From contig MGCQ01000001.1 of NCBI GenBank assembly GCA_001790445.1, forward strand, positions 187,157-251,156: DNA of 64,000 bases, given 5' to 3'. Positions within the stretch are counted from its first letter, which is position 1, and the number at the start of each line of letters is the position of its first letter. The position numbers were made by a program, and so were the translations under genes. A model generated the notes under the pieces. It was not told where the DNA came from and searched no databases. It saw only the letters and a list, made by a program, of their open reading frames with translations. This DNA is from Candidatus Saccharibacteria bacterium RIFCSPHIGHO2_12_FULL_41_12 (GTDB taxonomy: Bacteria > Patescibacteriota > Saccharimonadia > Saccharimonadales > 2-12-FULL-41-12). Positions 5,627 to 58,547 of this stretch are shown here, in pieces.

Positions 5627-6016
5627 CCATTTCGATTAAAGCCCCTCAGACTTTTATCACCATACTTTCTTGTGCAAACAAGAAAGTATGCAAAGAAATA
5701 GCAGGCTATTGAAGTAACATGATTGAAATATCTATTCAGGGGCCTGAAACAAAGCAGTCTAAAGTCATAATTAATAATATTTCCAAAGGAAATATACAAG
5801 GGAAGCTTGGGTCAGGCCTTGAGCAGACCTGAGAGATTTCGTCGAGATTACAACTAACAGCTGAGGACTGTTTGAACGACCAAAGGGAGAGAGTTCCGGA
5901 AGCTGTTGTAATCCTCGACAAGAAATCACTTCAAGTCTGTTCAACAGCCTGTCGGTTTTTGGGTTCCGTTTTGCCGATTCAAAATGGAACAAAAGTAGGC
6001 TTGCTTGCAAGCCTAC
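5627..6016 (-). repeat. Family-1 composite structured intergenic element, copy A (short form)
   Basis: Modules present: outer hairpin 5627-5660; HP1 perfect 13-bp hairpin 5661-5690; core long helix arms 5841-5854 / 5905-5919; GC hairpin 5995-6016. The strand given is the one reading GC-hairpin -> core -> HP1. Confidence 0.8.
5981..6016 (-). terminator. Intrinsic terminator-like hairpin downstream of pyrF (this is the GC-hairpin module of family-1 copy A)
   Basis: Minus strand reads GUAGGCUUGCAAGCAAGCCUAC followed by UUUUGUUCCAUUUUG, 23 nt after the pyrF stop. Confidence 0.55.
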
Positions 6017-6039
6017 TATTAAGTGATTGGTGGACTCTA

Positions 6040-6834
6040 CTAACGATATTGGTTGATTTCGTCGCGGAGTGCTTTCGCTGCCTTGGCTGGGTCTTCTGAA
6101 AAAATAATACCTCTTGCAGAGTTGATCATCAGACCTTTGCCTGACTTATCAAGCCCAGATCTGACGGCATCACCAACATCACCGCCTTGCGCACCAACAC
6201 CAGGCACTAAAAACGTCACCCCTGGAGTAATCTCTCTTATACGTTTCATTTCCTCAGGATAAGTTGCCCCAACAACTAGCATACAATTGCTATTCTTGTT
6301 CCATTCGTTTGCTACTTTTTCGGCCACAATCTCCCAGATTGTCTGACCATCTACCACGAGATCTTGGAACTCACCTGCGCCACTGTTAGAAGTTCGACAC
6401 AGTATTATCGAAACCTTGTCTTTTCTATCCAAAAACGGCTTTAACGCTTCACTGCCTAAATATGGATGGAGGGTAATCGAATCAAAGCCAAGCCAATCAA
6501 AAATGAACTTCGCATAGCCATTGTTGGTATTGCCGATATCAGCTCTTTTGGCATCACAAGAAGTAAATATATCCGGATATTGTTCAATCAGAAAATCCAT
6601 GGTCATTTTTAGCTCATGGATTCCTTGCTCCCCCCGAGCTTCATAAAAAGCAATGTTAGGTTTAAAGGCGGCCGCATACTCAGCGGTTTGCTCTATAATC
6701 CATCTGTTAAATTCAAATTGCGGAAACTTTTTTTGTTTGAATTTTGTGGGTAATTTGTCAAAATCAGGATCAAGCCCTACACAAAGAAGCGAATTTATGG
6801 CGTCGACTCTTTGGTTATACTTATCAATTAACAT
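6040..6834 (-). CDS. pyrF: Orotidine 5'-phosphate decarboxylase (type 2)
   Basis: 264 aa with VGLDP and DAKRADIGNT motifs. Overlaps pyrE by 11 nt. Confidence 0.9.
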   Translation of the reverse strand: MLIDKYNQRVDAINSLLCVGLDPDFDKLPTKFKQKKFPQFEFNRWIIEQTAEYAAAFKPNIAFYEARGEQGIHELKMTMDFLIEQYPDIFTSCDAKRADIGNTNNGYAKFIFDWLGFDSITLHPYLGSEALKPFLDRKDKVSIILCRTSNSGAGEFQDLVVDGQTIWEIVAEKVANEWNKNSNCMLVVGATYPEEMKRIREITPGVTFLVPGVGAQGGDVGDAVRSGLDKSGKGLMINSARGIIFSEDPAKAAKALRDEINQYR

Positions 6835-7462
6835 TTTTCGCTTCCATGTATTTACGGCCGTGTCCTATCTGTTGATTAACTGGTATACTCTCTTTGCACA
6901 TGGGACAATTTGACTCTTCGTATACTTCAACTATAAACTCCCCTAGTGCATAAAAAGGTACTCCAAAATATTCAGATGTCACCTCTGATGGGTTACGATT
7001 AACCAATACAACGACACCGACGACTTCACCGCCAGCTAGCCTAACTGCGTCTAAGACACTTTTTGCGCTTCCTCCTGTAGAGGTGACGTCCTCGACAATT
7101 AAGACTTTTTTTCCATTTACAAATTTGTCATAGCCACGAGTAAAAATTTGGTCTTCATCCTTATTTTTTTCAGTGTAAACACCGTAAATCTCTTTGCCCC
7201 CTTGTTTCGATGCGTGCCAAGCGGTCCACTGCGACAAGATTATTCCGCCAAGAGCCGGACCAACAACTACGTCGTAGTCCAAATCTTGTGTCTTATCGAC
7301 GAAAGCAATGCAAGCCTGGGACGTCAAGTCTGTATGTGGGTACAAGGCATCTTTATTGATATATTTACTGGCGTGCTTGCCCGATTTTAGGACAAAATGA
7401 TCATCTATAATTACTCCACCTACTGATTCGAGCACCTTGATAATATCAAAACTCATAGTCAC
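6824..7462 (-). CDS. pyrE: Orotate phosphoribosyltransferase
   Basis: 212 aa with the PRPP-binding loop VLIVEDVTSTGGS. Adjacent to pyrF. Confidence 0.85.
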   Translation of the reverse strand: MTMSFDIIKVLESVGGVIIDDHFVLKSGKHASKYINKDALYPHTDLTSQACIAFVDKTQDLDYDVVVGPALGGIILSQWTAWHASKQGGKEIYGVYTEKNKDEDQIFTRGYDKFVNGKKVLIVEDVTSTGGSAKSVLDAVRLAGGEVVGVVVLVNRNPSEVTSEYFGVPFYALGEFIVEVYEESNCPMCKESIPVNQQIGHGRKYMEAKNVN

Positions 7463-7509
7463 CTCTTCTATTTACACAATATTTTACTACTGAAAGTAGA
7501 TTTTAGCAA

Positions 7510-8052
7510 TCAAAATGTGTGCTTGATAATATGGTCAACCCTATCTTCTACACTCATAACAGGGATTTTTTTGACATTCATGCCGTATTTTTTATATGCC
7601 TGTTCTGTAAGCCTATGTAATTCTTCTGCTTCTGCCTTATCTTCTATTCTTGCATAATCTGTCTGGTAGTAATCGTCTAGCATATCGAGCAACAACACCT
7701 TATCATAAATATATTTTCGAAGTATACTATCAATTTCTGTGGTCATGTCTATTCTGTCAGCTTTGAAATAAGCCCAAGCATCGTGCATACCCCTGTCGAC
7801 AAAGACAATTTTACTACTATCTAAACTATCGAACCATTGCACCTCATTTTGAATCTTTTTTTCGATAATTGCCATCTGGAATTGCAAATTATCGCCTCTT
7901 ATTTCGTCAATTGTCATTCCCTTTGATAAACCTTCGTCTATCACCTGTCGTGCAGCCTCGTGGACTACAGTATGCCCACGTCTTTGGAGTTCATCAATAA
8001 CAGCAGTTTTACCTGTACCAGGACCTCCAATTATAGCAATAACTCTACTCAT
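7510..8052 (-). CDS. P-loop ATPase/kinase (AAA_28, NadR-like)
   Basis: 180 aa with Walker A GGPGTGKT and a size and pattern typical of AAA_28 small kinases. Confidence 0.55.
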   Translation of the reverse strand: MSRVIAIIGGPGTGKTAVIDELQRRGHTVVHEAARQVIDEGLSKGMTIDEIRGDNLQFQMAIIEKKIQNEVQWFDSLDSSKIVFVDRGMHDAWAYFKADRIDMTTEIDSILRKYIYDKVLLLDMLDDYYQTDYARIEDKAEAEELHRLTEQAYKKYGMNVKKIPVMSVEDRVDHIIKHTF

Positions 8053-8123
8053 AATATTATTTATACCATATAATGAAAATTTACAGAATACTTATTATGT
8101 GTTATTATACTTAAATAATTATT

Positions 8124-8810
8124 ATGAGCTCGGGAAATATATCACCAGAAAGAAAACCTATCCTAATATCTGATATTGATGCATTTCTGATTGACCCAAG
8201 AGAAATAAATGCACATTGGCTCCCTGGTGAGCCAAGATATCTTGACCTACCTGCTGACGAAAGCGCGATGGCAGAAGTCTATGGCATGAATTTACATGAA
8301 TTTTATAGAAAAAAAGATAAGTTTTTGAACTCCAGTGAAGCGATCCTCATACCACCGATTAAAGATTCTCCAGAGGTATTAGGTCTAGTAGCCATTCGAT
8401 TCGAAATAATTTTTGCAAGTGCAAGAGTACCTAATGTACACGAAAGCACTCTTGCCTGGCTAGAAGAACACTATGGTAACGCTGTCGGTAACCTGCAAGA
8501 AGAATTGAAACTTTTTACAATCGGTAGCGAAAAAACACATTATCTAGATTCTAAAGAAGCTATTTACAGAGCCTTTGGTGCGGAAGCGATGGCAGACGAC
8601 AAAAGACAACACCACATAGAAGCAAGAAATGCCGGTGTATCAACAAGGATATACTATCAGGACTCTAGGCTCGGTGGTGAGTCAAGAAGCGGGGCGACGC
8701 CTGAAGGCTCACATCTAGCTACAAATTTTCAGGAAGTTAAAACAATAATTTTGCCCCCTGATTACTCAAACGGAGACGATACGCCAAAAGTCACGTCTGC
8801 AGATCTTTAA
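8124..8810 (+). CDS. Hypothetical protein (possible HAD/nucleotidase-like fold)
   Basis: 228-aa ORF with good coding look. SDIDAFL near the N-terminus weakly resembles HAD motif I. No firm family recognised. Confidence 0.4.
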   Translation: MSSGNISPERKPILISDIDAFLIDPREINAHWLPGEPRYLDLPADESAMAEVYGMNLHEFYRKKDKFLNSSEAILIPPIKDSPEVLGLVAIRFEIIFASARVPNVHESTLAWLEEHYGNAVGNLQEELKLFTIGSEKTHYLDSKEAIYRAFGAEAMADDKRQHHIEARNAGVSTRIYYQDSRLGGESRSGATPEGSHLATNFQEVKTIILPPDYSNGDDTPKVTSADL

Positions 8811-8823
8811 TTAATCTTGGGTT

Positions 8824-10086
8824 TTATTTCCCGAGCCAGTCAGCAAACCACTTAGCACTGGGGCGAATTGTTCGTTTCATGCCATGTTTTCTATCTACAG
8901 CTACAAGCCCAAATTTTGGCCACCAACCAAAGCCCCATTCAAAATTATCTAGTAAACTCCAGTGTAAGTAACCTCTCAAATCAACACCTTCACTGATAGC
9001 TCGCTCCATGGCGACTATATTCTCTTCTATCCACCACCGCCTGTATTCATCTCGGGCATCAGCCAGACCGGTTTCCGTGATAAAAATGGGCTTTTTATAA
9101 TGAGCCCAAGCTCGGGTAATAATTGGGTATAGCCCTTCTGGCTCCATGTACCAACCAAGATCACTGACCGGTTGATGTGGGTTTTTGATTTTACCAAGCC
9201 CTGTGTAATAATCCGCAAAATAATAGTTAAGACCTACAAAATCCATAGTTCGGCGCACTCTGTTTAAAAACCACCAATTCCAGACGTAGCGCATCACCTC
9301 TGTTGTTAGAATATCAAATACATTGTGTGGCCTTTTTGGCTGAATATTAGACGTATTTGGTGCAGCGCCAATACTAATATCTTTTCTTTGTTTTTTTATA
9401 ATTTTGTAAGCTCTTCTATGAGCCAGAACAAGATTATAATAAGTAATTCCAGCAGAAAGCATTTTGCCCTTTTTACCCGGAGGCCACTCCCCAAGTATAT
9501 AGCCAAACGACACATAGTTATTGGGCTCATTCAGAATTATTACATACTGAACATCGTCCAGCAATTCATCGGTGATTTTTTGGATAAATCTTTCAAAATA
9601 TTGTAAATTACTTCTTTTTTCAAATCCCTTTTTTTCTGCCAACCAGACAGGTAATGTCCAATGCCAAATATTGAGAAATGGCTCAATCTTTTGTCTGCGT
9701 AGTTCCTTAATATAATTTTTGTAATGTGCTATTGCCTCCTCGTTCCATTTGCCCTCTTCTGGTTCAATCCTCGACCACTCTACCGTAAAACGAAAAGCAT
9801 TAAGATTTAGTTTTTTGACTAAAGCAAAATCTTCTTTGTATCTGTTGTAATGGTCCACACCCGTGCCTGATATATAGTTGTCAGGATCTTCTGCCTCATC
9901 TTTAATCCGGTCCCATGCAGGCAACCAGCTTAGTCGTTGGTGTGCCGTACGAGCCAGTTCTTTGGCGTATTCGGCTTCCCAAATAGTCCATTGATTGTAT
10001 TGACCACCTTCAACTTGGTGAGATGCTGTTGAAGCGCCCCAAAAGAATGTCTTTGGAAAATTATTTAATCTGTTATCTTCAGTCAT
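8824..10086 (-). CDS. Glycoside hydrolase family 1 (beta-glucosidase-like)
   Basis: 420 aa with the acid/base motif LNEPN and the nucleophile motif ITETG. Confidence 0.88.
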   Translation of the reverse strand: MTEDNRLNNFPKTFFWGASTASHQVEGGQYNQWTIWEAEYAKELARTAHQRLSWLPAWDRIKDEAEDPDNYISGTGVDHYNRYKEDFALVKKLNLNAFRFTVEWSRIEPEEGKWNEEAIAHYKNYIKELRRQKIEPFLNIWHWTLPVWLAEKKGFEKRSNLQYFERFIQKITDELLDDVQYVIILNEPNNYVSFGYILGEWPPGKKGKMLSAGITYYNLVLAHRRAYKIIKKQRKDISIGAAPNTSNIQPKRPHNVFDILTTEVMRYVWNWWFLNRVRRTMDFVGLNYYFADYYTGLGKIKNPHQPVSDLGWYMEPEGLYPIITRAWAHYKKPIFITETGLADARDEYRRWWIEENIVAMERAISEGVDLRGYLHWSLLDNFEWGFGWWPKFGLVAVDRKHGMKRTIRPSAKWFADWLGK

Positions 10087-10171
10087 TTTTAACCATTTTT
10101 GTTTTATATTTCCTGTGGATATAGTATATTCTTACTCATAAAATAGCAAGTTTTGCTGTCATATTGTGTGT

Positions 10172-10177
10172 TATAAT
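10172..10177 (+). promoter_or_regulatory. -10 box TATAAT 6 nt upstream of the pyrB ATG (leaderless-type)
   Basis: Sequence is gtgtgTTATAATtttcatATG. No SD lies between the box and the ATG at 10184. Confidence 0.4.
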
Positions 10178-10183
10178 TTTCAT

Positions 10184-11107
10184 ATGCATGTGGTGTCCAT
10201 AGACCAGTTTGATAAAGATGCGCTGTTTGAATTATTTACTAAGACCGATCAGATTAAGGAAGCACTTACTAGCCCTTCAGGGAGAAAAAAGCTTGCTGGT
10301 AAACATCGCGATAAACAAATCTGCACACTGTTTTATGAACCGTCAACTCGTACCCGTCTTAGTTTTGAAACTGCCGGCTACAAATTGGGTTTTGGTGTAG
10401 TCAGTACAGAAAGCGCCGGACAATTCTCTTCCGCCAGCAAGGGTGAGACCATGGAAGACACTATGGGAGTACTCGATGGATATGGCTATAGCGCAGTTAT
10501 AATTCGTCATCCAGAGACGGGCATGATTGGGCGAGCTGCAAAAGTAGCAAAAACGCCAATTATTAACGCTGGTGACGGCGCTGGCGAACACCCCACACAG
10601 TCGCTACTCGATACCTACACAATTTACAGCAACTTTGGTCGTTTGGATAATTTAACAGTTACCATGGGCGGAGACCTTAAATATGGCCGTTGTCCGAGGT
10701 CTCTGGCTAAAGTTTTGGCAAAATTTGACGACAATCATATCAAGTTTGTCTCCACCAAGTCCTTGGCTATTGGGCAAGATATAAAAGATTTTTTGAAGCA
10801 AAACAACACCACATATGAAGAAACCTCTGATATAGAAAAGGGCGTTGCTGGTTCTGATGTGATTTATTGGACTAGGCTTCAAAAAGAACGACTAGATGAA
10901 AAAGATAAGGGTCTCGCACATGGGTTTATAATAGACAAAAATACCCTAAAGTTAATGAAAAAAGACGCAATTATTATGCACCCTCTGCCCCGTGTTGACG
11001 AAATAACCACCGATGTTGACGATGACCCTAGAGCCAAATACTTTGAGCAAGCAGGCAACGGACTTCTTATCCGCATGGCCTTGCTCGACACAATTGCTAC
11101 TGAATAA
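10184..11107 (+). CDS. pyrB: Aspartate carbamoyltransferase catalytic subunit
   Basis: STRTR, HPTQ and HPLPR motifs are present. The track ORF starts at GTG 10166, but that would contain the TATAAT box, so ATG 10184 (MHVVSIDQF...) is preferred. Confidence 0.88.
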   Translation: MHVVSIDQFDKDALFELFTKTDQIKEALTSPSGRKKLAGKHRDKQICTLFYEPSTRTRLSFETAGYKLGFGVVSTESAGQFSSASKGETMEDTMGVLDGYGYSAVIIRHPETGMIGRAAKVAKTPIINAGDGAGEHPTQSLLDTYTIYSNFGRLDNLTVTMGGDLKYGRCPRSLAKVLAKFDDNHIKFVSTKSLAIGQDIKDFLKQNNTTYEETSDIEKGVAGSDVIYWTRLQKERLDEKDKGLAHGFIIDKNTLKLMKKDAIIMHPLPRVDEITTDVDDDPRAKYFEQAGNGLLIRMALLDTIATE

Positions 11108-11125: not shown

Positions 11126-11669
11126 CAACCTTTCGCCGGCACTAAAGTGCCTGATGCAACATACTTTCTTGTGTTGACAAGAAAGTATGCAAAGAAGCAA
11201 CAGGCGGTTGAACAAACTTGAAGTGATTTCTTGTCGAGGATTACAACAGCTTGCGGAACTCATCCCGCCACGGCGGGGCTCAGACAGTCCTCAGCTGATA
11301 GTTGTAATCTCGACGAAATCTCTCAGGTTTGCTCAAGGCCTGACCAACAATCTGTATATTTTCAAAGAAAATATTATTAATACTTTAGACTGCTTTTGGT
11401 CCCCTTTTAAAAACACCTTTGGATTATTCAATACCAAAACAGATTAATCTGAGGACTAGGCTTTATGCCCGACTGGAAGGAGTCCCGCAAGAGTAGTTTG
11501 TTTTGGTATTGAATAATTAAGGGTAATTGTTTTTAAACCGGGGTGGCACTTTTTGCTTACTTTTTCTTGCTATTGAGAAAAAGTAAGGTGATAAAAGCCT
11601 CTTTGGAGGCTTTAGCGCAATGCAGCTAACCCTTAGTCAAGAATTTTTTGACACAAAAATGGAACAAAG
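11126..11669 (+). repeat. Family-1 composite structured intergenic element, copy B (long, rearranged form)
   Basis: Modules present: outer hairpin 11138-11151; HP1 11160-11189; core arms 11233-11247 / 11301-11314; apical GC hairpin 11264-11277; stem 11423-11442 / 11497-11517 carrying the X module 11451-11488; HP2 11556-11587; outer hairpin 11594-11613; end piece 11650-11669. Confidence 0.8.
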
Positions 11670-11690: not shown

Positions 11691-12389
11691 CTACTTTAAT
11701 TTAAGGTAGTGTTGGCGGGTTTGTTCAGGCAATTTTTCTATTGAGTATCTCAGCATAGTTCTAGGCATTTCGTGCGCATGTTTATCCAAAAAATCTATTA
11801 ATATCGCCTCATCCACCCTACCCCCAACTTCTCTAAGCATCCAGCCCACCGCCTTATGGATCAAATCATGGTTATCTTTTAGTAATTTTTCGGCTAATTC
11901 TATTGATGTAACTGCGTGACCATTTTTTATGAAATGAAAAGTTGCCAATACTGCAACTCGTCTCTGCCACAAATTATCACTACTTGCCAGATCAAACAGT
12001 AAATCACGCGGTTTATCTATCAAATATCCACCAACTATCTGATGAGCAGAACTATCGACTATATCCCAGTTATTTACTCTATTTCTGTAGACATTATTCA
12101 GATACAAATCAAATATTTTTTGCTTATTTTTGTTAAATTGGTTAACCAGCAAAATAACTGCCGCCAAACGATGCTCATGGATCGGGCTATCAAGTAGCTT
12201 CTGTATTTCCCCCAGCGATAAGTCCTTAAACACTTTGCAAACTTTGCGGGTATCTGGCACGCGCGCGCCAATAAACACGTCTCCTTCCCCATATTCTCCT
12301 TCGCCAGTCTTGAAAAATCTCTGCAAAAAACTTGCGTCACTGTCACTAGCATATTTTTGGATAGCCAGTTCAAAATCCTCAGCCGTCAT
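11691..12389 (-). CDS. DNA alkylation repair protein (AlkD/AlkC-like HEAT-repeat glycosylase family)
   Basis: 232 aa. N-terminal FLQRFFKTGEGEYGEGDVFIGARVPDTRK is typical of this family. Confidence 0.75.
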   Translation of the reverse strand: MTAEDFELAIQKYASDSDASFLQRFFKTGEGEYGEGDVFIGARVPDTRKVCKVFKDLSLGEIQKLLDSPIHEHRLAAVILLVNQFNKNKQKIFDLYLNNVYRNRVNNWDIVDSSAHQIVGGYLIDKPRDLLFDLASSDNLWQRRVAVLATFHFIKNGHAVTSIELAEKLLKDNHDLIHKAVGWMLREVGGRVDEAILIDFLDKHAHEMPRTMLRYSIEKLPEQTRQHYLKLK

Positions 12390-17426: not shown

Positions 17427-17654
17427 CTAACTGTCGTCGATAGATATTACTTTGATGGAGCTGGTTAGACCTCTGATGATTTCTATTTGAGATTTTGTCA
17501 CGTCGTAGTGCTCCGCCAGCAGTTTGATCACTGCCCTGTTTGCCTTGCCGCCAATCGCAGGCTCTTTAACATGCACCAGCAACGACCCGTCAAAAGCCGG
17601 CTGGACAAACTCGCCTTTTTTACTACTTGGCTTAACCTTGATCGTAACTTTCAT
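17427..17654 (-). CDS. DUF167 (YggU-like) protein
   Basis: 75 aa with the pattern VKPSSKK...V...PA.GGKAN..vikllA, typical of YggU. Confidence 0.7.
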   Translation of the reverse strand: MKVTIKVKPSSKKGEFVQPAFDGSLLVHVKEPAIGGKANRAVIKLLAEHYDVTKSQIEIIRGLTSSIKVISIDDS

Positions 17655-17663
17655 CTTGGTTGG

Positions 17664-17669
17664 ATTATA
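17664..17669 (-). promoter_or_regulatory. -10 box TATAAT 9 nt upstream of the ATG of the DUF167 gene (leaderless-type)
   Basis: Minus strand reads TATAAT-CCAACCAAG-ATG with no SD. Confidence 0.45.
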
Positions 17670-17708
17670 ACAGAGTGCACGTTTTAAGAGGTAAATTTCA
17701 TCAATTCA

Positions 17709-21970: not shown

Positions 21971-22246
21971 TTATGCGTCTCGGATTAATTTGATATCTGT
22001 TATTGCAATGACTTTGTGATAGACATTGGCGGGTATATGGAACATCTTTGGTGATTGTACCTTGGTCGATTCTTCGCCAATTGTTAGCTCAATCTCTCCT
22101 TCAACGAGATACAGCGTTTCAGCCTCTTCGTGGGTATGATCTGCAGAAATTGTACCTTTCTTGCGAACTATGTAGTTAACGGGTTCACAACGGTATATTT
22201 TGCCCCTGTCGTCGTCCTTAATAATTGGGATATCTTGAATTTTCAT
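21971..22246 (-). CDS. Small cupin-domain protein
   Basis: 91 aa with the HTHEEAETLYLVEGE ... H pattern of a cupin metal site. Confidence 0.6.
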   Translation of the reverse strand: MKIQDIPIIKDDDRGKIYRCEPVNYIVRKKGTISADHTHEEAETLYLVEGEIELTIGEESTKVQSPKMFHIPANVYHKVIAITDIKLIRDA

Positions 22247-22848
22247 ATTGGTTTAATTATATCATTTACTTGTTCTACGTTTTTATATAAGTGGGCGTCT
22301 AGACCTAGTCGCTTGCCGGCATCGACGTGTTTTTGTGTATCATCAAAGTAGATTATATCTTCTGGCTTAAGACTTGGGTTCTTGCCACAGATTGCTTCAA
22401 TAACTTTTTTAAAAAAGTCTGTACTTGGTTTTTTTGCTCCAATTTCAGCAGAAATAAAAAATCCGTCAAATTTGCCTTTGAACATTACGTCTTGCATATA
22501 CTTACCACGATATTTCTCTTGGTTAGTCACAACGTAGCATAGAATACCTTGGTTTCGTAACTTGGCAATGTAGTTTAGCAAGGCCTCATTTTGGACGTTC
22601 TCTGTCTCAAACCATAGCTTGAGTAAGTCTTCTACCTCGCCATCCCACCGCCAAATATCGTTATTCTCTGCTATAAGTTGCTTGAGATCTGCCCTGCCCA
22701 CCAACGCATCAGGAAACTTATCTTCAAAAAACTGCTCAAACGATTTTGGATTAAAATCATGCTCTGCGGCATAAATCTGGGCGAACAAACTTTCTGGGAC
22801 GGTGAGCACCCCATCTGCATCAAACAAAACTGCCTTAACTCTTTTCAT
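22243..22848 (-). CDS. HAD-superfamily hydrolase
   Basis: 201 aa with motif I FDADGV and motif IV-like FDD. Confidence 0.75.
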   Translation of the reverse strand: MKRVKAVLFDADGVLTVPESLFAQIYAAEHDFNPKSFEQFFEDKFPDALVGRADLKQLIAENNDIWRWDGEVEDLLKLWFETENVQNEALLNYIAKLRNQGILCYVVTNQEKYRGKYMQDVMFKGKFDGFFISAEIGAKKPSTDFFKKVIEAICGKNPSLKPEDIIYFDDTQKHVDAGKRLGLDAHLYKNVEQVNDIIKPI

Positions 22849-22857
22849 CTTGGTTAG

Positions 22858-22863
22858 ATTATA
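22858..22863 (-). promoter_or_regulatory. Extended -10 (TGC-TATAAT) 9 nt upstream of the ATG of the HAD hydrolase gene (leaderless-type)
   Basis: Minus strand reads AACTGCTATAAT-CTAACCAAG-ATG. Confidence 0.45.
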
Positions 22864-22915
22864 GCAGTTATCCGTACCTACAGTGGGGTTTGGTGGCTGT
22901 GTTTATCCAATATAT

Positions 22916-23422
22916 TTATGAATCTATTTCTAGCTGAATGTAGTCAGCAAAATACCCTTTGTACTTTTCCCGAAGTTTGGGGTTTTTGTAGTCAACCGAG
23001 GGTTTAATGAACTTGCGACATTCTGGTGAACCACACTGACAAGCAAATGACTGGGTATCGCTGGTCCATGCAGTTGCATAATCAACGGTTATTTCTTCAC
23101 CAGCACCGATATCTTTCATTGACCTTACTTCAATTTGACCTGAAATATATGCGTTGGGCGAGCAAGAATGGTTGTAGCCAATCAATGTTCGATCGACTTC
23201 GTCAAAAGTTAACCCTGTCATAAACAGATCTGGCTCAATTTGATGATGTGAACCGTTAATCACATCGGCATGCTTAATTACCGTAGCCTCATCCACAATT
23301 TTACCGGCTTTTACAGCTAGTAGTTCGTGTGCGGAGATATCCTTAATCGCAAAAAGCCCAACGCCTTGAAGACCCCCTTCTCTCCTTTGAACAAAATCAG
23401 ATCGCCAGCATTTCAGTTTCAT
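22916..23422 (-). CDS. SET-domain protein (putative lysine methyltransferase)
   Basis: 168 aa with NHSCSPNA and GEEITVDY motifs plus a post-SET-like CQCGSPEC cluster. Confidence 0.8.
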   Translation of the reverse strand: MKLKCWRSDFVQRREGGLQGVGLFAIKDISAHELLAVKAGKIVDEATVIKHADVINGSHHQIEPDLFMTGLTFDEVDRTLIGYNHSCSPNAYISGQIEVRSMKDIGAGEEITVDYATAWTSDTQSFACQCGSPECRKFIKPSVDYKNPKLREKYKGYFADYIQLEIDS

Positions 23423-23431
23423 CTTGGTTAG

Positions 23432-23437
23432 ATTATA
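23432..23437 (-). promoter_or_regulatory. -10 box TATAAT 9 nt upstream of the ATG of the SET-domain gene (leaderless-type)
   Basis: Minus strand reads ACTGGTATAAT-CTAACCAAG-ATG. The 9-nt spacer is identical to the one at 22849-22857. The box lies in the 10-nt gap and the 3' end of the upstream gene. Confidence 0.45.
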
Positions 23438-24044
23438 CCAGTTTTGCGATTACACGGGATGGGGAGGCTTCTATGTCTAACTTGAGGGGTAATGCCTGGA
23501 CTGTGAATTGTTTGTTTTCTAGCTGGGCGAGGTTGGTTAGATTTTCTATTATTAGCACATCTCCGCTGAGAAGGATTTTGTGGGTGCTAAAAGGTGGCTG
23601 GTCAGGACTGCACATGTCCATACCGACCATACTGATCTTTTTCTCTAATAAATACTGTGCTATTTCTTCTGGAATTTCTGGTGAGTTATCAAAATATTCA
23701 CTCTGCCCATACAGATCACTCATACCCGTATGGAATAACACAATATCGCCTTCTCTAATATCTGTGTTTTTGAGCTTTTCCAGATCAAATATCTTGTTTT
23801 CTACTTTGATATATACTCCCCTGCCAACAAATTTATCTAGTGGGTACTTATCAATGGTCTTGCCGTCTGCAATCATGTGAAGTGGTGCATCAATATGAGT
23901 CCCCACATGCGTACCAACAGATACATAATGGTCATTATAACCATCTTTATCAAAAACCCCAGCTACCTCAATTTTGGTAGCAGGATCTCCCGGATAAACC
24001 GGCGTCCCCTCGTTCAAAACCACAGATAAATCAACTATTTTCAT
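23433..24044 (-). CDS. Cyclase-family protein (kynurenine formamidase-like)
   Basis: 203 aa with the motif HVGTHIDAPLH. Confidence 0.75.
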   Translation of the reverse strand: MKIVDLSVVLNEGTPVYPGDPATKIEVAGVFDKDGYNDHYVSVGTHVGTHIDAPLHMIADGKTIDKYPLDKFVGRGVYIKVENKIFDLEKLKNTDIREGDIVLFHTGMSDLYGQSEYFDNSPEIPEEIAQYLLEKKISMVGMDMCSPDQPPFSTHKILLSGDVLIIENLTNLAQLENKQFTVQALPLKLDIEASPSRVIAKLV

Positions 24045-28544: not shown

Positions 28545-29022
28545 ACAACCTTCCGCCGACACCAAGGTGTCTGATGCGTCATACTTTCTTGTGTTGACAA
28601 GAAAGTATGCAAAGAAACAACAGGCTATTGAATAACATTATTGAAATATCTAAACAATTAACCCAGTTTCTGCGGGACTCCTTCCAGTCGGGCTAAAGCC
28701 TAGTCCTCAAAACATGGCGTTAATCGCTCAGATATTTCATCAGTTATTAAATGGCCTGAAATTTAGTTGCTAGATTATTAATAATATTTTCATAGAAAAT
28801 ATACACTCTGCTTCTGGTCAGGCCTTGAGCAGACCTGAGAGATTTCGTCGAGATTACAACTATTAGACGAGGACTGTCTGAATGACCAAAGGGAGAGAGT
28901 TCCGCAGTCTGTTGTAATCCTCGACTAGAAATCCCACCCGGGTCTGTTCAATCGCCTGTCGGTTTTGGGTTCCGTTTTGCCGAAACAAAATGGAACAAGA
29001 AATGGCTTGCTTGCAAGCCTGC
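28545..29022 (-). repeat. Family-1 composite structured intergenic element, copy C (long form with X module)
   Basis: Modules present: outer hairpin 28558-28571; HP1 28580-28609; X module 28672-28708; core arms 28847-28860 / 28911-28925; GC hairpin 29004-29019. Confidence 0.8.
28985..29022 (-). terminator. Intrinsic terminator-like hairpin downstream of the 29041-29697 gene (GC-hairpin module of copy C)
   Basis: Minus strand reads GGCUUGCAAGCAAGCC followed by AUUUCUUGUUCCAUUUUG, about 20 nt after the stop. Confidence 0.45.
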
Positions 29023-40093: not shown

Positions 40094-40096
40094 GAC

Positions 40097-40261
40097 CTAC
40101 ACACCACACCTTTCTGCCGACCAGCGAAGCTGCCCACTCCAAAGGTGTTCTTGGCGTAGAATCAATTTTTTATTTGTGATACTCACTCCGCCGTACCAAA
40201 TGTACGACTTGTTCCGTTTCTCAATAATAAAATTGATTCTACGTCCAAGTGTGTTGGTCAT
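40097..40261 (-). CDS. Small ORF (54 aa) inside family-2 structured element, stop 3 nt before the pyrG ATG
   Basis: Manual translation gives MTNTLGRRINFIIEKRNKSYIWYGGVSITNKKLILRQEHLWSGQLRWSAERCGV. It is a paralogue of the ORF at 50000-50173, sharing EK.NK.Y..YGGV...QE.LW...AERC. It is below the track's 60-aa cutoff, and its coding status is uncertain. Confidence 0.4.
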   Translation of the reverse strand: MTNTLGRRINFIIEKRNKSYIWYGGVSITNKKLILRQEHLWSGQLRWSAERCGV

Positions 40262-40358
40262 GCTTATAAATATCCCATTTTATCTATATATTCTACATCA
40301 ATTAACTATAAATATCCAATAATAACTTCCACGAACTACTGAAAGTAACTGACAGTGT

Positions 40359-43125: not shown

Positions 43126-43600
43126 GCATTGCGATAAAACCTTACACGCTTTTTATCACCTTACTTTTTCTCAGTAGCAAGAAAAAGTAAGCAAAAAGTG
43201 CCACCCTTAGCTAAAAACAATCCATGAACTATTCAAACAACCTCTTAGCAGGCTTGCAGGCAAGCCATCTCTTGTTCCATTTTTGTGTCGACAAAAACGG
43301 AACCCAAAAAACGACAGGCTATGAACAGACTTGATGAGACTACCAGTCGATAGTTACAACAGCCTGCGGAACTCAGCCAGTAAACTGGCTTCAAACAGTC
43401 CTCGCCTTAGTAGTTGTAACATCGACGTAGTCTCTCGGGTCTGGTTCATGGCCTGAGAAGGCTTCCCTAGTATATTTCCTTAGGAAATATTATTAATCAT
43501 GACTTTAGACTGCTATTGGTCAGGCTGTTGTTTGTTTGTATACTTTCTTGTCAACACAAGAAAGTATGGTGATTAAATCCTTGAGCTTTAAGTGCAATGG
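43126..43600 (+). repeat. Family-1 composite structured intergenic element, copy D (both hairpin ends present, most divergent core)
   Basis: Modules present: left end with HP2 43160-43191; GC hairpin 43251-43266; core arms 43346-43360 / 43413-43426; apical hairpin 43375-43390; HP1 43540-43567; right end to 43600. Confidence 0.8.
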
Positions 43601-43624
43601 AAATTAAAAGCTGTATTTTATTTC

Positions 43625-49996: not shown

Positions 49997-49999
49997 AAC

Positions 50000-50173
50000 C
50001 TATGCAACACACCTTTCTGCTAACTGGCAAAGCCAGCAATTCCAAAGGTATTCTTGACCAAAAACAGCTTTTTCTTTTGCGAGATTCACTCCACCGTACT
50101 TCAGGTACGGCTTGTTCCATTTCTCAAAGAGAAAAGCTGTTTTTAACTCAAGTGCAAAGGTTATGATTTTCAT
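50000..50173 (-). CDS. Small ORF (57 aa) inside family-2 structured element, overlapping the secA stop (TAATG) and ending 3 nt before the M16 start
   Basis: Manual translation gives MKIITFALELKTAFLFEKWNKPYLKYGGVNLAKEKAVFGQEYLWNCWLCQLAERCVA. It is a paralogue of 40097-40261 and below the track cutoff. Its coding status is uncertain. Confidence 0.45.
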   Translation of the reverse strand: MKIITFALELKTAFLFEKWNKPYLKYGGVNLAKEKAVFGQEYLWNCWLCQLAERCVA

Positions 50174-53480: not shown

Positions 53481-54557
53481 CTAAGCGCGCACCAATAGAA
53501 GTTCTTGCTTGGGTAACGGATAATATCTTTCTGTCGGTTTGAAACTACCTCCTTGTTTGAAATAGCCATCAACATCAGTCATTATTTGGTTTGCAATCGC
53601 TTCTGCAAATTTTACAGGAACTGCGTTACCTATCATTTTGTAACCATCTGAAATATTTGTGTATACGAATTGAAAATCATCTGGAAATGTCTGGATTCTA
53701 GCGCATTCACGAACACTCAATCGCCTATAAAGTGATTCTTTCCCTTTCACAAAAATCTGTTTATTTTCACCAACCTTCATCATCTTTGGCGCATCTGGGT
53801 GTATTGGTGCATGTCTACCACCTGCTTGTATAGTGAAGGATGGTTCATCCCAGGATCTAACTCTATTGCGCGACATGTATATTGTAGAGAAACCACCATT
53901 CATATACTCATGGTTAGGAGTTTCCAATTTATTTCCATGGGTCTTATTTTTATCTTTTGCAGGTTCTGCTGTTTTTCTCAAATCCCAGATGGAATCTTTT
54001 AAATTCTTTTTGTTCTCATCAACAATCGATTCGGGAAAACTAAACTTCTTGCCAAGTTTTTTATCATAGCCAATAAAAAATACTCTCTTCCTATCTTCAG
54101 GGACACCGTAATCATACGCATTTAAGAGCTTATATGTGAAGTGATACCCAAGTTTTTCAAATTCTTCAATAATGAAATCTAAAGAATCTTTGTGCCTGAC
54201 AGAAAGCATACCAGAAACATTTTCGGCGAGAAAAAAAAGTGGTTTCTTGTCTCTTATTACTCGTATATATTCGAGGAATATTTGTCCTCTTCTGTCTCCA
54301 AGACCTCTGCCCGCCCCAGCTTCACTCCAACTTTGACAAGGTGGACCGCCAATTATTCCAATAGCGTTAGGTATTTGAGCAGATGGGATGATTCCTAAAT
54401 TTCTGTCATCTACCTCTGTTTCTGGGAAGTTTAAACGAAGTGTAGGTGTAATTGTTTCATCAAACTCGTTAGCCCATTTTAGGTGAAAGCCCGCATTATG
54501 AAAGCCAAGGTCAAGACCTCCTGCACCACTAAATAGAGATACGAGGTCAAACTTCAT
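53481..54557 (-). CDS. DNA (cytosine-5)-methyltransferase, M.HaeIII-like (probable GGCC specificity)
   Basis: 358 aa with motifs FSGAGG, PPCQSWS, ENV and GNAVP. The variable region (DKNKTHGNK..PNHEY..STIYMSRNRVRSWDEPSFTIQAGGR) closely resembles my recollection of the M.HaeIII target-recognition domain. Confidence 0.85.
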   Translation of the reverse strand: MKFDLVSLFSGAGGLDLGFHNAGFHLKWANEFDETITPTLRLNFPETEVDDRNLGIIPSAQIPNAIGIIGGPPCQSWSEAGAGRGLGDRRGQIFLEYIRVIRDKKPLFFLAENVSGMLSVRHKDSLDFIIEEFEKLGYHFTYKLLNAYDYGVPEDRKRVFFIGYDKKLGKKFSFPESIVDENKKNLKDSIWDLRKTAEPAKDKNKTHGNKLETPNHEYMNGGFSTIYMSRNRVRSWDEPSFTIQAGGRHAPIHPDAPKMMKVGENKQIFVKGKESLYRRLSVRECARIQTFPDDFQFVYTNISDGYKMIGNAVPVKFAEAIANQIMTDVDGYFKQGGSFKPTERYYPLPKQELLLVRA

Positions 54558-55428
54558 AGCTGATAATCCTTGCTTCTATTAATTTTACCGGGTTATTTGG
54601 ATCTGATATCTGAACTTTGTTCATGATCATTTTATCATCAAGCTGTGCTTCAAATTTTAATCTTGACTCTTCTGGGAAAGAAAGATATTTACTGTCAAGA
54701 AGAAGGCAATACGCGCGAAACATAGCATCTTTTCTAGACTTAGGAATAATATCTTCGAATACTACAGCCGGATTTTTGACAATCCACATACCTCTTACTC
54801 GTAGACGAGTAATACCTAATGGATCTATCTTTGGCACCACGGCTAATTCATTAGTGTCAGAAAGTTCGGTTTTATCAAAACTTTGAGATATAGCACCGGT
54901 AATTCTTTGCGCCGCTTTTTCGTAAACACCATGTTCAGCGGCAAAACAATCACCATAGATAAACCAGAGTCTTGTGAGCAACTTATCCTTTCCGACAGAA
55001 CCTACGGCATAAAATATATCCTTTTGAGTCCAGTTTTCCTTAAGAGCAAGTTCTCTGCACGTTTTATTGATTCTCGTGTCTGAAGCCAGAAGGCACGCTT
55101 TTGGTGGGGAGCTATTCAACTGAATACTCGCTGTTAATGAATCAACTTTTTTTACTTCAATTGCATCTCCATTTTTCAAGATCATATCTGGAGGGTTATT
55201 TGAATTTCCTGCATATGCGAAAACCTTAAAATGTGCCTTCTTTTTCACAGCTTTACTCTTTATTTTCAAAGTGTCTGAGAACAAATCTTTGATATAATCT
55301 TCTAGGCCTGATCCTATTTTTTGTATGCTATTGCCACTGACTCCGTCAGATACAGATAATTCTACATTTTCTTTGAGAAAAATAAGAGCATTCAGGATAT
55401 TATTTTTTGATATGTTTCTTTTACCCAT
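54547..55428 (-). CDS. Type II restriction endonuclease (partner of the m5C methyltransferase)
   Basis: 293-aa ORF directly upstream of the methyltransferase, overlapping it by 11 nt. SD GAGAGGG. No general family motif recognised, so the call rests on context. Confidence 0.6.
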   Translation of the reverse strand: MGKRNISKNNILNALIFLKENVELSVSDGVSGNSIQKIGSGLEDYIKDLFSDTLKIKSKAVKKKAHFKVFAYAGNSNNPPDMILKNGDAIEVKKVDSLTASIQLNSSPPKACLLASDTRINKTCRELALKENWTQKDIFYAVGSVGKDKLLTRLWFIYGDCFAAEHGVYEKAAQRITGAISQSFDKTELSDTNELAVVPKIDPLGITRLRVRGMWIVKNPAVVFEDIIPKSRKDAMFRAYCLLLDSKYLSFPEESRLKFEAQLDDKMIMNKVQISDPNNPVKLIEARIISYEV

Positions 55429-58075: not shown

Positions 58076-58547
58076 GGCTTGCAAGCAAGCCTGATTTTGT
58101 TCCATTTTGAATCGACAAAACGGAACCCAAAAACCGACAGGCGGTTGAGCAGACTTGATGGGATTTCTTGTCGAGGATTACAACAGACTGTGGAACTCTC
58201 TCCCTTTGGTCGTTCAAACAGTCCTCGTCTGATAGTTGTAATCTCGACGAAATCTCTCAGGTCTGCTCAAGGCCTGACTAACAATCTGTATATTTTCTTA
58301 GAAAATATTATTAATAATCTAGCCGCTTAAGCTCCAGGCCCTTGGATAACTGATGAAATATTTCTTCAAGCAACACCATGTTTTGAGGACCAGGCTTTAG
58401 CCCGACCATAGGGAGTCCCGCAAAAACTGGGTTGATTGAAGAGATATTTCAATAATGTTACTTCAATAGCCTGCTATTTCTTTGCATACTTTCTTGTTAG
58501 TACAAGAAAGTATGGTGATTAAAGCCTGGGAGGGTTTAAGCGCAATG
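58076..58547 (+). repeat. Family-1 composite structured intergenic element, copy E (long form with X module)
   Basis: Modules present: GC hairpin 58076-58091; core helix 58146-58270 with arms 58170-58184 / 58235-58248; AT hairpin 58291-58310; X module 58385-58421; HP1 58485-58514; outer hairpin 58521-58537. Confidence 0.8.

Follow-up and report, generated by a model that had tools for sequence, protein, structure and literature searches.

A 64,000-nucleotide window (contig MGCQ01000001.1, positions 187,157 to 251,156) of a Candidatus Saccharibacteria metagenome-assembled genome from Rifle, whose SecA protein is OGL31344.1, contains five copies, A to E, of an intergenic repeat with the shape of a long imperfect hairpin, or rod. 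A first-pass annotation of copy D (43322-43445) had claimed that compensatory substitutions preserve the rod helix between this divergent copy and copies A, B, C and E. The locus raises the question of whether the pairing is under selection and, if so, what kind of element is being maintained. The earlier finding is real and was understated, for it described one corner of an uncatalogued family of structured repeats of the Saccharimonadales. The reading that we prefer, tentatively, is that rod D is one copy of a mosaic, hairpin-built intergenic repeat family distributed across Candidatus Saccharimonadales and similar in kind to repetitive extragenic palindromes (REPs), bacterial interspersed mosaic elements (BIMEs) and REP doublets forming hairpins (REPINs).

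Paired changes in rod D and its homologues

Rod boundaries were taken from two covariance models, R1 and R2, whose scores are given in bits. Rod D belongs to family 1, occupies positions 43310-43459 of the forward strand (R1 141 bits, R2 127.5 bits) and thereby encloses the interval annotated before. It forms an imperfect hairpin of about 150 nt with the apex CAACAG-CC-UGCGGAACUC ... UCAAACAGUCCUCG and the tip hairpin AGCCAG-UAAA-CUGGCU. The rods of the window fold far more stably than shuffled sequences, with a minimum free energy of -70.5 kcal/mol (z = -9.6) in the case of rod D, and a 21-nt core pattern matches all five of them where 0.03 matches would be expected by chance.

The individual double changes reported for this helix are present in the sequence. 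The segments GGGATTTC/GAAATCTC of copy E read GAGACTAC/GTAGTCTC in copy D, corresponding to one change from U-A to C-G, one from U-A to A-U and one from G.U to A-U; the positions given earlier for E were off by 1-2 nt, the true ones being 58160-58167 / 58249-58256, and the counterparts in D lie at 43336-43343 / 43427-43434. Similarly, ATTACAAC/GTTGTAAT of E is replaced by GTTACAAC/GTTGTAAC in D (A-U to G-C), and adjoining this pair is a further double change from G-C to U-A (alignment columns 45/117) that had been overlooked. The exchange of CAGAC/GTCTG in E for CAAAC/GTTTG in B was also recovered, as was the compensated T-A to C-G change that separates the AT hairpin ATATTTCC/GGAAATAT of A and D from ATATTTTC/GAAAATAT of B, C and E. 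In the hairpin upstream of rod D, the T-run and the A-run are each longer by one base, as had been described. Folding confirmed that the tips of B and D, unlike in sequence, each form a hairpin, whereas the tip UCUCCCUUUGGUCGU of A, C and E forms none.

When the five window rods were analyzed with RNAalifold, 50 pairs were obtained, seven of which show changes on both sides. Rod D differs from the consensus of A, B, C and E at 14 paired positions, and ten of these make up five fully compensated doubles; among the remaining changes, two single ones keep or improve the pairing and one breaks a pair. When 14 substitutions were placed at random 100,000 times, five or more compensated doubles never arose (P<1e-5).

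Homologues beyond the window were sought by a strict motif scan of metagenome contigs (CAACAG-N5-GGAACTC-N10-40-ACAGTCCTC), which yielded 51 loci; they stem from Rifle, Hainich and further samples of groundwater and soil. A true homologue is present at nearly all of them, often with stems that are unrecognisably different. A looser scan of genome contigs with TTACAACAGNNTNNGGAACTC gave 117 loci, all of which were chance matches, mostly in Flavobacterium coding DNA. No match was obtained in a viral contig collection, nor for composite D (the doublet to which rod D belongs) in a BLASTN search against plasmids. Rfam 15 gave no match in the window at gathering thresholds, and at E<=1 the seven element-bearing loci that were searched gave no hits other than rRNA and two weak ones, to rimP and to a group I intron, none of them on the element. 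In the literature on structured RNAs, transposable elements of the miniature inverted-repeat type (MITEs), REPs, REPINs, REP-associated tyrosine transposases (RAYTs) and small RNAs of Saccharibacteria or Patescibacteria, no description of the element was found.

A covariance model derived from copies A to E served to align 50 distinct sequences. In this alignment 91.5% of the cells are paired, compared with 35-45% in controls with slid partners, and changes on both sides occur in 38 of the 50 pairs, which extends the claim of a preserved rod helix from the window to the family. The covariation score amounted to 0.507, as against 0.146 for shuffles (0 of 500 reached the observed value) and 0.05-0.08 for the slid controls. 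Rod length ranges from 139 to 169 nt. An origin of this signal in chance or in the alignment has in its favour that the earlier note relied on five copies only and that alignments made to a covariance model lean towards the structure of the model. However, the permutation result holds for rod D alone, a structure-blind MAFFT alignment of 47 sequences still retains 14 pairs with compensatory changes, the slid controls remain far below the observed pairing, and each of the 50 sequences folds into the rod individually. We consider an artefact extremely improbable and regard it as practically established that selection acts on the structure of the rod.

What is constant in this family is not the stem but the apex, ACAACAG-NN-UGCGGAACUC-[variable tip hairpin]-UCARACAGUCCUCG-NN-..AGUUGU, in which the two NN positions covary as CC/GG, CU/AG, AC/GU or UC/GA. 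Fixed throughout the family are also several asymmetries, namely a bulged A, a C.U mismatch, the 6-nt UCARAC bulge and internal loops. The tip next to the invariant apex varies freely. Some tip types recur over divergent stems, for example ACCGCCAGCUGGCGGU and GGCUAUCGCC, and the non-hairpin tip UCUCCCUUUGGUCGU(U) is identical in A, C and E of the window and in locus L124 (701-851), despite the very different stems of the latter. A related tip, CUCCCUAUGGUCG, is found in the second family of rods described below. The UCUCCCUUUGGUCGU tip includes a UCCC motif, which is complementary to a Shine-Dalgarno-like GGGAG.

Architecture of the units and their copies in the window

The rod is one module of a larger unit of about 230-250 nt. 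Immediately 5' of 55 out of 57 rods there is a hairpin of 7-13 bp, hpB, of the form ..UUG-loop-CAA.., whose stems vary and covary (CAUACUUUCUUGU.., GUUCCAUUUUG.., CACUUUUGG.., GCUACCUUG..) and which is followed by a C/A-rich linker (CAAAGAA, GCAAAAC, CCAAAAACC or GCACCCACC). An outer hairpin, hpA, lies further 5' and exists in several types; the GUUCUUUUCCAAAGAAC type recurs in many genomes, and the GC type of the window is terminator-like, its GC-rich stem standing directly before a U tract. The types of hpA, hpB and rod combine freely and truncated units occur nested, so that the whole is a mosaic. On the 3' side of the rod, conservation ends after ..ACC(C). In L163 and in L142/L169 a complete rod is followed, 20-30 nt downstream, by a partial second copy of its 3' end, UCAGAUGCCCGGA.., which may be the footprint of recombination or of a nested insertion.

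Units are frequently arranged in pairs. Of the adjacent rod pairs, 15 are convergent, none is divergent and one is in tandem; the gap between convergent rods has a modal length of about 50 nt and contains a small central hairpin. Such tail-to-tail pairs account for 30 of 71 rods.

In unit D, the GC hairpin GGCUUGCAGGCAAGCC (43251-43266, forward strand) is followed by a U-rich tract and for that reason resembles a terminator; its counterpart in copy E was scored as terminator-like. Next come the hpB GUUCCAUUUUUG-UGUCGA-CAAAAACGGAAC and its linker CCAAAAAACGA (43274-43303, forward strand), the rod, and the central AT hairpin ATATTTCC-TTA-GGAAATAT (43472-43490), which separates the rod from the remnant of an inverted partner (43500-43606, reverse strand). 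In this remnant, delimited by alignment and sequence, the rod is deleted, and what is kept is HP1, a hairpin of the hpB type (ATACTTTCTTGT..ACAAGAAAGTAT, 43540-43567), together with an outer hairpin ending in ..GCAATG. Upstream of D lies an additional, truncated unit (43127-43229, forward strand) consisting of the hairpin CUUACUUUUUCU..AGAAAAAGUAAG and the linker CAAAAAG, a module that is also found ahead of the partner rod of B.

The other family-1 rods are A (5809-5956, reverse strand, R1 166.7 bits), B (11196-11346, forward strand, R1 158 bits), C (28815-28963, reverse strand, R1 164 bits) and E (58133-58280, forward strand, R1 172 bits), B being preceded by HP1 and not by the GUUCC hairpin. 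Their stem columns are 91-99% identical, and D represents a second subfamily that is also found in the Hainich groundwater contigs L139 and L145, where the element matches the window and the flanks are unrelated. Three inverted partners are rods of a second family: that of E (58331-58478, reverse strand, R2 42.4 bits and fold), that of C (28616-28762, forward strand, R2 46.5 bits) and, as a variant, that of B (11397-11548, reverse strand, R2 34.1 bits). The family-2 rods of the window share the apex GCGGGACUCC...GGUCCUC, which in the partner of E reads GCGGGACUCC ... CUGGUCCUC. The partner unit of B has its own hpB and a GUUCUUUUCCAAAGAAC hairpin located 4 nt past the stop codon of the gene at 11691-12389. 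In A and D the partner rod is partly or wholly deleted, the sequence of the partner of A (5650-5760) revealing an internal deletion. In total, five family-1 and three family-2 rods are present in the 64 kb, all of them intergenic.

Sites, hosts and strand of the repeat

Composite D lies between the genes for FtsX and a CHAP protein, a spacer that measures 689 nt in the window and 111 nt in L179, 54 nt in L180, 208 nt in L182, 371 nt in L183 and 186 nt in L185. In these five relatives, whose FtsX sequences are 65-86% identical, with L179 at 86%, composite D is absent from the site. Both flanks of the roughly 590-nt composite are conserved, namely the context of the stop codon of FtsX and the promoter of the CHAP gene, and a search with filters switched off over about 93 kb of syntenic DNA from the relatives gave no rod. 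The composite is bounded by inverted modules of the form CATTGC-hairpin-ATCACC, and no insertion sequence was seen. In L122 and L164, which come from divergent genomes, both genes flanking an element-bearing spacer are shared and the content of the spacer differs. In L122 it holds a strong rod that points the same way as the upstream gene, together with a weak partner; in L164 the strong rod points the other way. This difference suggests turnover or inversion at a persistent site.

All homologues that could be placed belong to Candidatus Saccharimonadales, including L130, which carries a very different rod subtype and was assigned by the names of the closest relatives of its valyl-tRNA synthetase. 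The 3' ends of 23S rRNA genes adjoining three elements are only 83-87% identical to each other, so that the family extends over a wide part of this order. Throughout, the copies are intergenic. In most cases 57-99 nt separate the start of the rod from the stop codon of a same-strand gene, which places the unit directly against that stop codon, and single rods are followed by promoter-like TGnTATAAT sequences of the next gene. This is not the placement of a riboswitch or a 5' leader, since units follow stop codons and D and E are antisense to both of their neighbours. A fixed promoter beside the rod was not found in either sense; a promoter scan gave 0 sites, and the information content in the 40 nt beyond the rod does not exceed 0.43 bit per position. 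The open reading frames (ORFs) between widely spaced convergent rods (L129, L120 and L156) were considered as transposases and turned out to be ordinary small genes.

With respect to the strand, the G.T pairs of the window had been taken to favour an RNA transcribed in the direction GC-hairpin, core, HP1. Counted over the family, this receives no support outside two columns: G.U and U.G pairs number 98 and A.C and C.A pairs 61, but 44 of the G.U pairs fall in these two columns and elsewhere the numbers are 54 and 61. The reverse complement is the more stable strand in 35 of 50 sequences, by 2.8 kcal/mol on average (P about 0.001), and the unpaired internal positions have no excess of A (A 31%, U 37%). 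An opposite hint had been drawn from the module called X. X together with HP1 constitutes a divergent second rod in opposite orientation, which explains the hint, and this rod has no consistent strand preference either; family-2 rods are likewise ambiguous on folding. The arms are almost purely Watson-Crick, with about 6% G.U on either strand, and such near-pure symmetry fits a DNA-level palindrome better. On the other hand, pyrimidine-pyrimidine mismatches (116) are more frequent than purine-purine ones (29), and this excess and the high-frequency U.G columns, in which Watson-Crick pairs occur in alternation, are hints in favour of the strand that is co-oriented with the gene. On the gene-sense strand the rod has A-rich flanks without a downstream U tract, and on the reverse strand the complement of the linker comes next, reading UUUUG for CAAAA or UUCUUUG for CAAAGAA. 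At copy E a site of terminator-like character was called there, but a reverse-strand terminator was rejected as a general feature, the U tract being absent from the clade with the GCACCCACC linker.

Some other features were noted in the same sequences. A second structured repeat occurs in the window at 40094-40262 and 49997-50172 (both reverse strand) and in L180 at 5860-6035. It comprises a rod of about 100 nt with the apex GAGAAAYGGAACAAGYCGUAC..GUACGGYGGAGUGA and a hairpin CACCUUUGGA..GCAGAAAGGUG, both enclosed by an outer stem. The two window copies have minimum free energies of -68 and -63 kcal/mol, their stems differ yet pair, and they give weak R2 matches of 15-21 bits. One is located before pyrG and the other between secA and an M16 peptidase gene; at the latter site L179 lacks the repeat, its two genes abutting each other, and L180 has it in the opposite orientation. 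A 32-nt motif, TTTCATCTTGGTTAGATTATA..., is repeated at 17649-17680, 22241-22272, 22843-22874 and 23417-23448; its reverse complement, TATAATCTAACCAAGATGAAA, contains a -10-like box about 11 nt before the ATG of minus-strand genes, and the motif may be a shared promoter with a short leader. At 53481-55428 (reverse strand) a restriction-modification pair is encoded, RE_NgoPII and a C5 DNA methylase, and the equivalent interval of L179, from the S30AE gene to secA, has an unrelated short-chain dehydrogenase gene instead; this interval looks like a small variable island. A heliorhodopsin gene (PF18761; 60525-61511, reverse strand) lies among genes for tRNA modification and aminoacyl-tRNA synthetases. 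In L141, the 23S rRNA gene (5809-10937, reverse strand) is about 5.1 kb long; it contains several large insertions and gives a weak match to a group I intron (RF00028, 25.6 bits), and a rod unit is situated downstream of the adjacent 5S gene. 23S genes with large insertions or introns have been reported for bacteria of the Candidate Phyla Radiation. Mimicry of rRNA was considered for the rod and dismissed, as the apical motif is not present in the 23S and 5S rRNAs of L141.

Possible nature of the element

The mosaic of modules, the inverted doublets, the patchy copy number, the presence or absence at orthologous sites and the symmetry of the strands are the reasons for taking REPs, BIMEs and REPINs as our working model. 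According to it, hpA, hpB, the C/A-rich linker and the rod of about 150 nt make up a unit that lies after the stop codon of one gene and ahead of the next promoter, and such a unit is often connected by its tail to that of a second, divergent one, with a small hairpin at the centre. Selection holds the arms of the rod complementary and its asymmetric apical motif invariant while leaving the tip hairpin free, and the repeat would be non-autonomous and would be gained, lost and reshuffled among related genomes. The folded single strand with its invariant apex might be the recognition site of a trans-acting protein encoded elsewhere, and this strand could be single-stranded DNA, a read-through transcript or both.

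Several findings speak against this preferred reading. With about 150 nt the rod is 5-6 times longer than a REP (20-40 nt), and partner rods, only 43-50% identical in their stem columns, cannot pair with each other as the near-identical arms of a REPIN do. The apical motif of about 35 nt stays invariant in hosts as distant as their 23S genes indicate, which exceeds the conservation known from REPs and suggests a conserved trans-acting partner. Not all copies are young: diverged paralogues on the same contig (61-70% identical) are each 84-94% paired, with doubles far outnumbering singles, and a single 575-kb contig carries three rods whose stems are 68-70% identical and which are each 90-94% paired, with more compensated double than single-sided changes between them; this suggests that every copy is maintained and not active masters alone. 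No clear target-site duplication was seen when the filled site was compared with the empty site of L179, and a clean terminal inverted repeat could not be defined for composite D. Among the genes with Pfam annotation in the fetched loci (about 190 kb) there was no transposase, integrase or Y1/RAYT-type gene, and a recurrent neighbour protein, sought among 519 ORFs, yielded only housekeeping functions shared by synteny (ABC/FtsE, RF-1, a ribbon-helix-helix antitoxin, sortase). Furthermore, one column is occupied by U.G in 34 of 50 sequences, in alternation with Watson-Crick pairs; of the 52 rods with a callable upstream ORF, 36 are co-oriented with it and 16 opposed, most of the latter being partners in pairs; and in L124, L128 and L141 the unit follows a 5S rRNA gene on the same strand. 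The orientation bias and the units next to 5S genes fit a role at the transcript level and, together with the strand hints, lead us to keep such a role open.

It is possible, and this is the main rival reading, that the unit is a host cis-acting structured RNA, a forward-strand 3' extension of the upstream gene whose apex binds a conserved host factor and which protects or defines 3' ends or insulates operons, convergent pairs serving both directions of transcription. This would account for the spacing from the stop codon, the co-orientation, the 5S sites and the U.G column just mentioned, for the promoter-like sequences after single rods and for the terminator-like character that hpA can have, and it agrees with deep covariation around an invariant apex, as in bona fide RNA classes, and with pairing retained in old paralogues. 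Against it stand the absence of a G.U excess outside two columns, a reverse strand that folds equally well or better, loops that are not A-rich, the lack of a U tract after the rod on the forward strand, the dispensability of the element at orthologous sites, the lack of any rod in the roughly 93 kb of syntenic DNA fetched from five relatives, and the fact that composites between co-directional genes always have one unit antisense. Both explanations could hold at once, as REPs, too, act in transcripts. Independent small-RNA genes with promoters of their own, for example diverging from the AT-rich centre of a composite and ending at the U-rich complement of the linker, appear improbable: the reverse-strand UUUUG or UUCUUUG, the terminator-like site at copy E, the slightly more stable reverse strand and the -10-like hexamers in the AT-rich central spacers of the window would be in line with them, but neither a positionally fixed promoter motif nor any site in the promoter scan was obtained, the GCACCCACC-linker clade offers no reverse-strand U tract, and single rods abut the promoter of the next gene. 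More improbable still is pairing without structural selection, generated by template switching between the arms of the palindrome or by gene conversion between copies. Near-pure Watson-Crick arms and the surplus of doubles between paralogues would be expected from such self-templating, and the homogeneity of A, B, C and E is compatible with conversion. However, self-templating should erase asymmetries, and the bulged A, the C.U mismatch, UCARAC, the U.G and the internal loops are fixed over about 50 sequences whose stems have diverged to 25-70% identity, so that this process alone is insufficient; moreover, the apex is invariant and the neighbouring tip is freely variable. A further proposal has, in our view, a realistic though minor chance of being right: the rod unit would be a new class of structured element specific to Saccharibacteria and the apex of about 35 nt a putative docking site of a conserved protein, of which the element would be a functional partner and not junk, and for which it might serve as an RNA scaffold, decoy or guide, or as a site of single-strand DNA recombination.

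Comparison with known systems brings out the same mixture. The rod units share with REPs, BIMEs and REPINs the abundance of intergenic copies that lie, in either orientation, close to the 3' ends of genes, the hairpin units with compensatory changes and the wide variation in copy number among related genomes, with BIMEs in particular the mosaic of unit types with fixed linker motifs, and with REPINs the preference for inverted doublets. The differences lie, besides length and the divergence of paired rods, in an apical motif that is invariant across distant genomes, in the lack of a RAYT or other mobilising gene in the fetched loci, and in the hosts, which are proteobacteria in the case of REPs, BIMEs and REPINs and Patescibacteria with genomes of about 1 Mb in the case of the rods. 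The pneumococcal BOX, Neisseria Correia, enterobacterial ERIC and Bacillus cereus bcr1 repeats are likewise modular or palindromic intergenic elements of 100-400 nt with stable folds, some of them with compensatory changes and co-transcription with neighbours, but each of these families is limited to one genus or species. Terminal inverted repeats and target-site duplications belong to MITEs, and neither could be defined for the rod units; none of these repeats, MITEs included, combines a deeply conserved apex with freely covarying stems. HEARO RNA (Rfam RF02033) resembles the rod family in being multi-copy, strongly covarying, mobile-looking and often without an adjacent gene. HEARO was subsequently recognised as omega RNA, the guide-RNA scaffold of IscB, and is a precedent for a repeat that is the RNA partner of a protein. 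The rod units, however, have no sequence or structure match in Rfam and no IscB- or TnpB-like gene nearby, and they consist of a simple rod and two hairpins without a pseudoknot. Integron attC sites are imperfect palindromes as well, with structure conserved beyond sequence, extrahelical bases and variable terminal structures, whereas cassette arrays, intI and an R/L box consensus are absent from the sequences read here, and the copies are scattered among housekeeping genes. Mycobacterium TRIT and inverted pairs of Neisseria DNA uptake sequences (DUS) are also conserved, repeated 3'-end hairpins, often bidirectional; unlike these terminators, the rods lack a downstream U tract on the gene-co-oriented strand, are far longer and possess an asymmetric internal motif. 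Hammerhead, K-turn, Y RNA, 6S RNA, retron msd, domain 5 of group II introns, T-box and attC, compared informally and by eye, were set aside because sequence and architecture did not fit.

Saccharibacteria and other Patescibacteria have streamlined genomes of roughly 1 Mb, and to our knowledge almost nothing is known about non-coding elements in these bacteria. A 2024 perspective on the biology of Saccharibacteria and Patescibacteria mentions neither non-coding RNAs nor intergenic elements. In the window studied here, a single family of folded repeats occupies about 3-4% of the DNA. The R2 covariance model can now be used for a census of genomes and for profiling of partners, and the fact that the stems covary like those of established RNA classes around an apex that is invariant across distant lineages points to a trans-acting partner.

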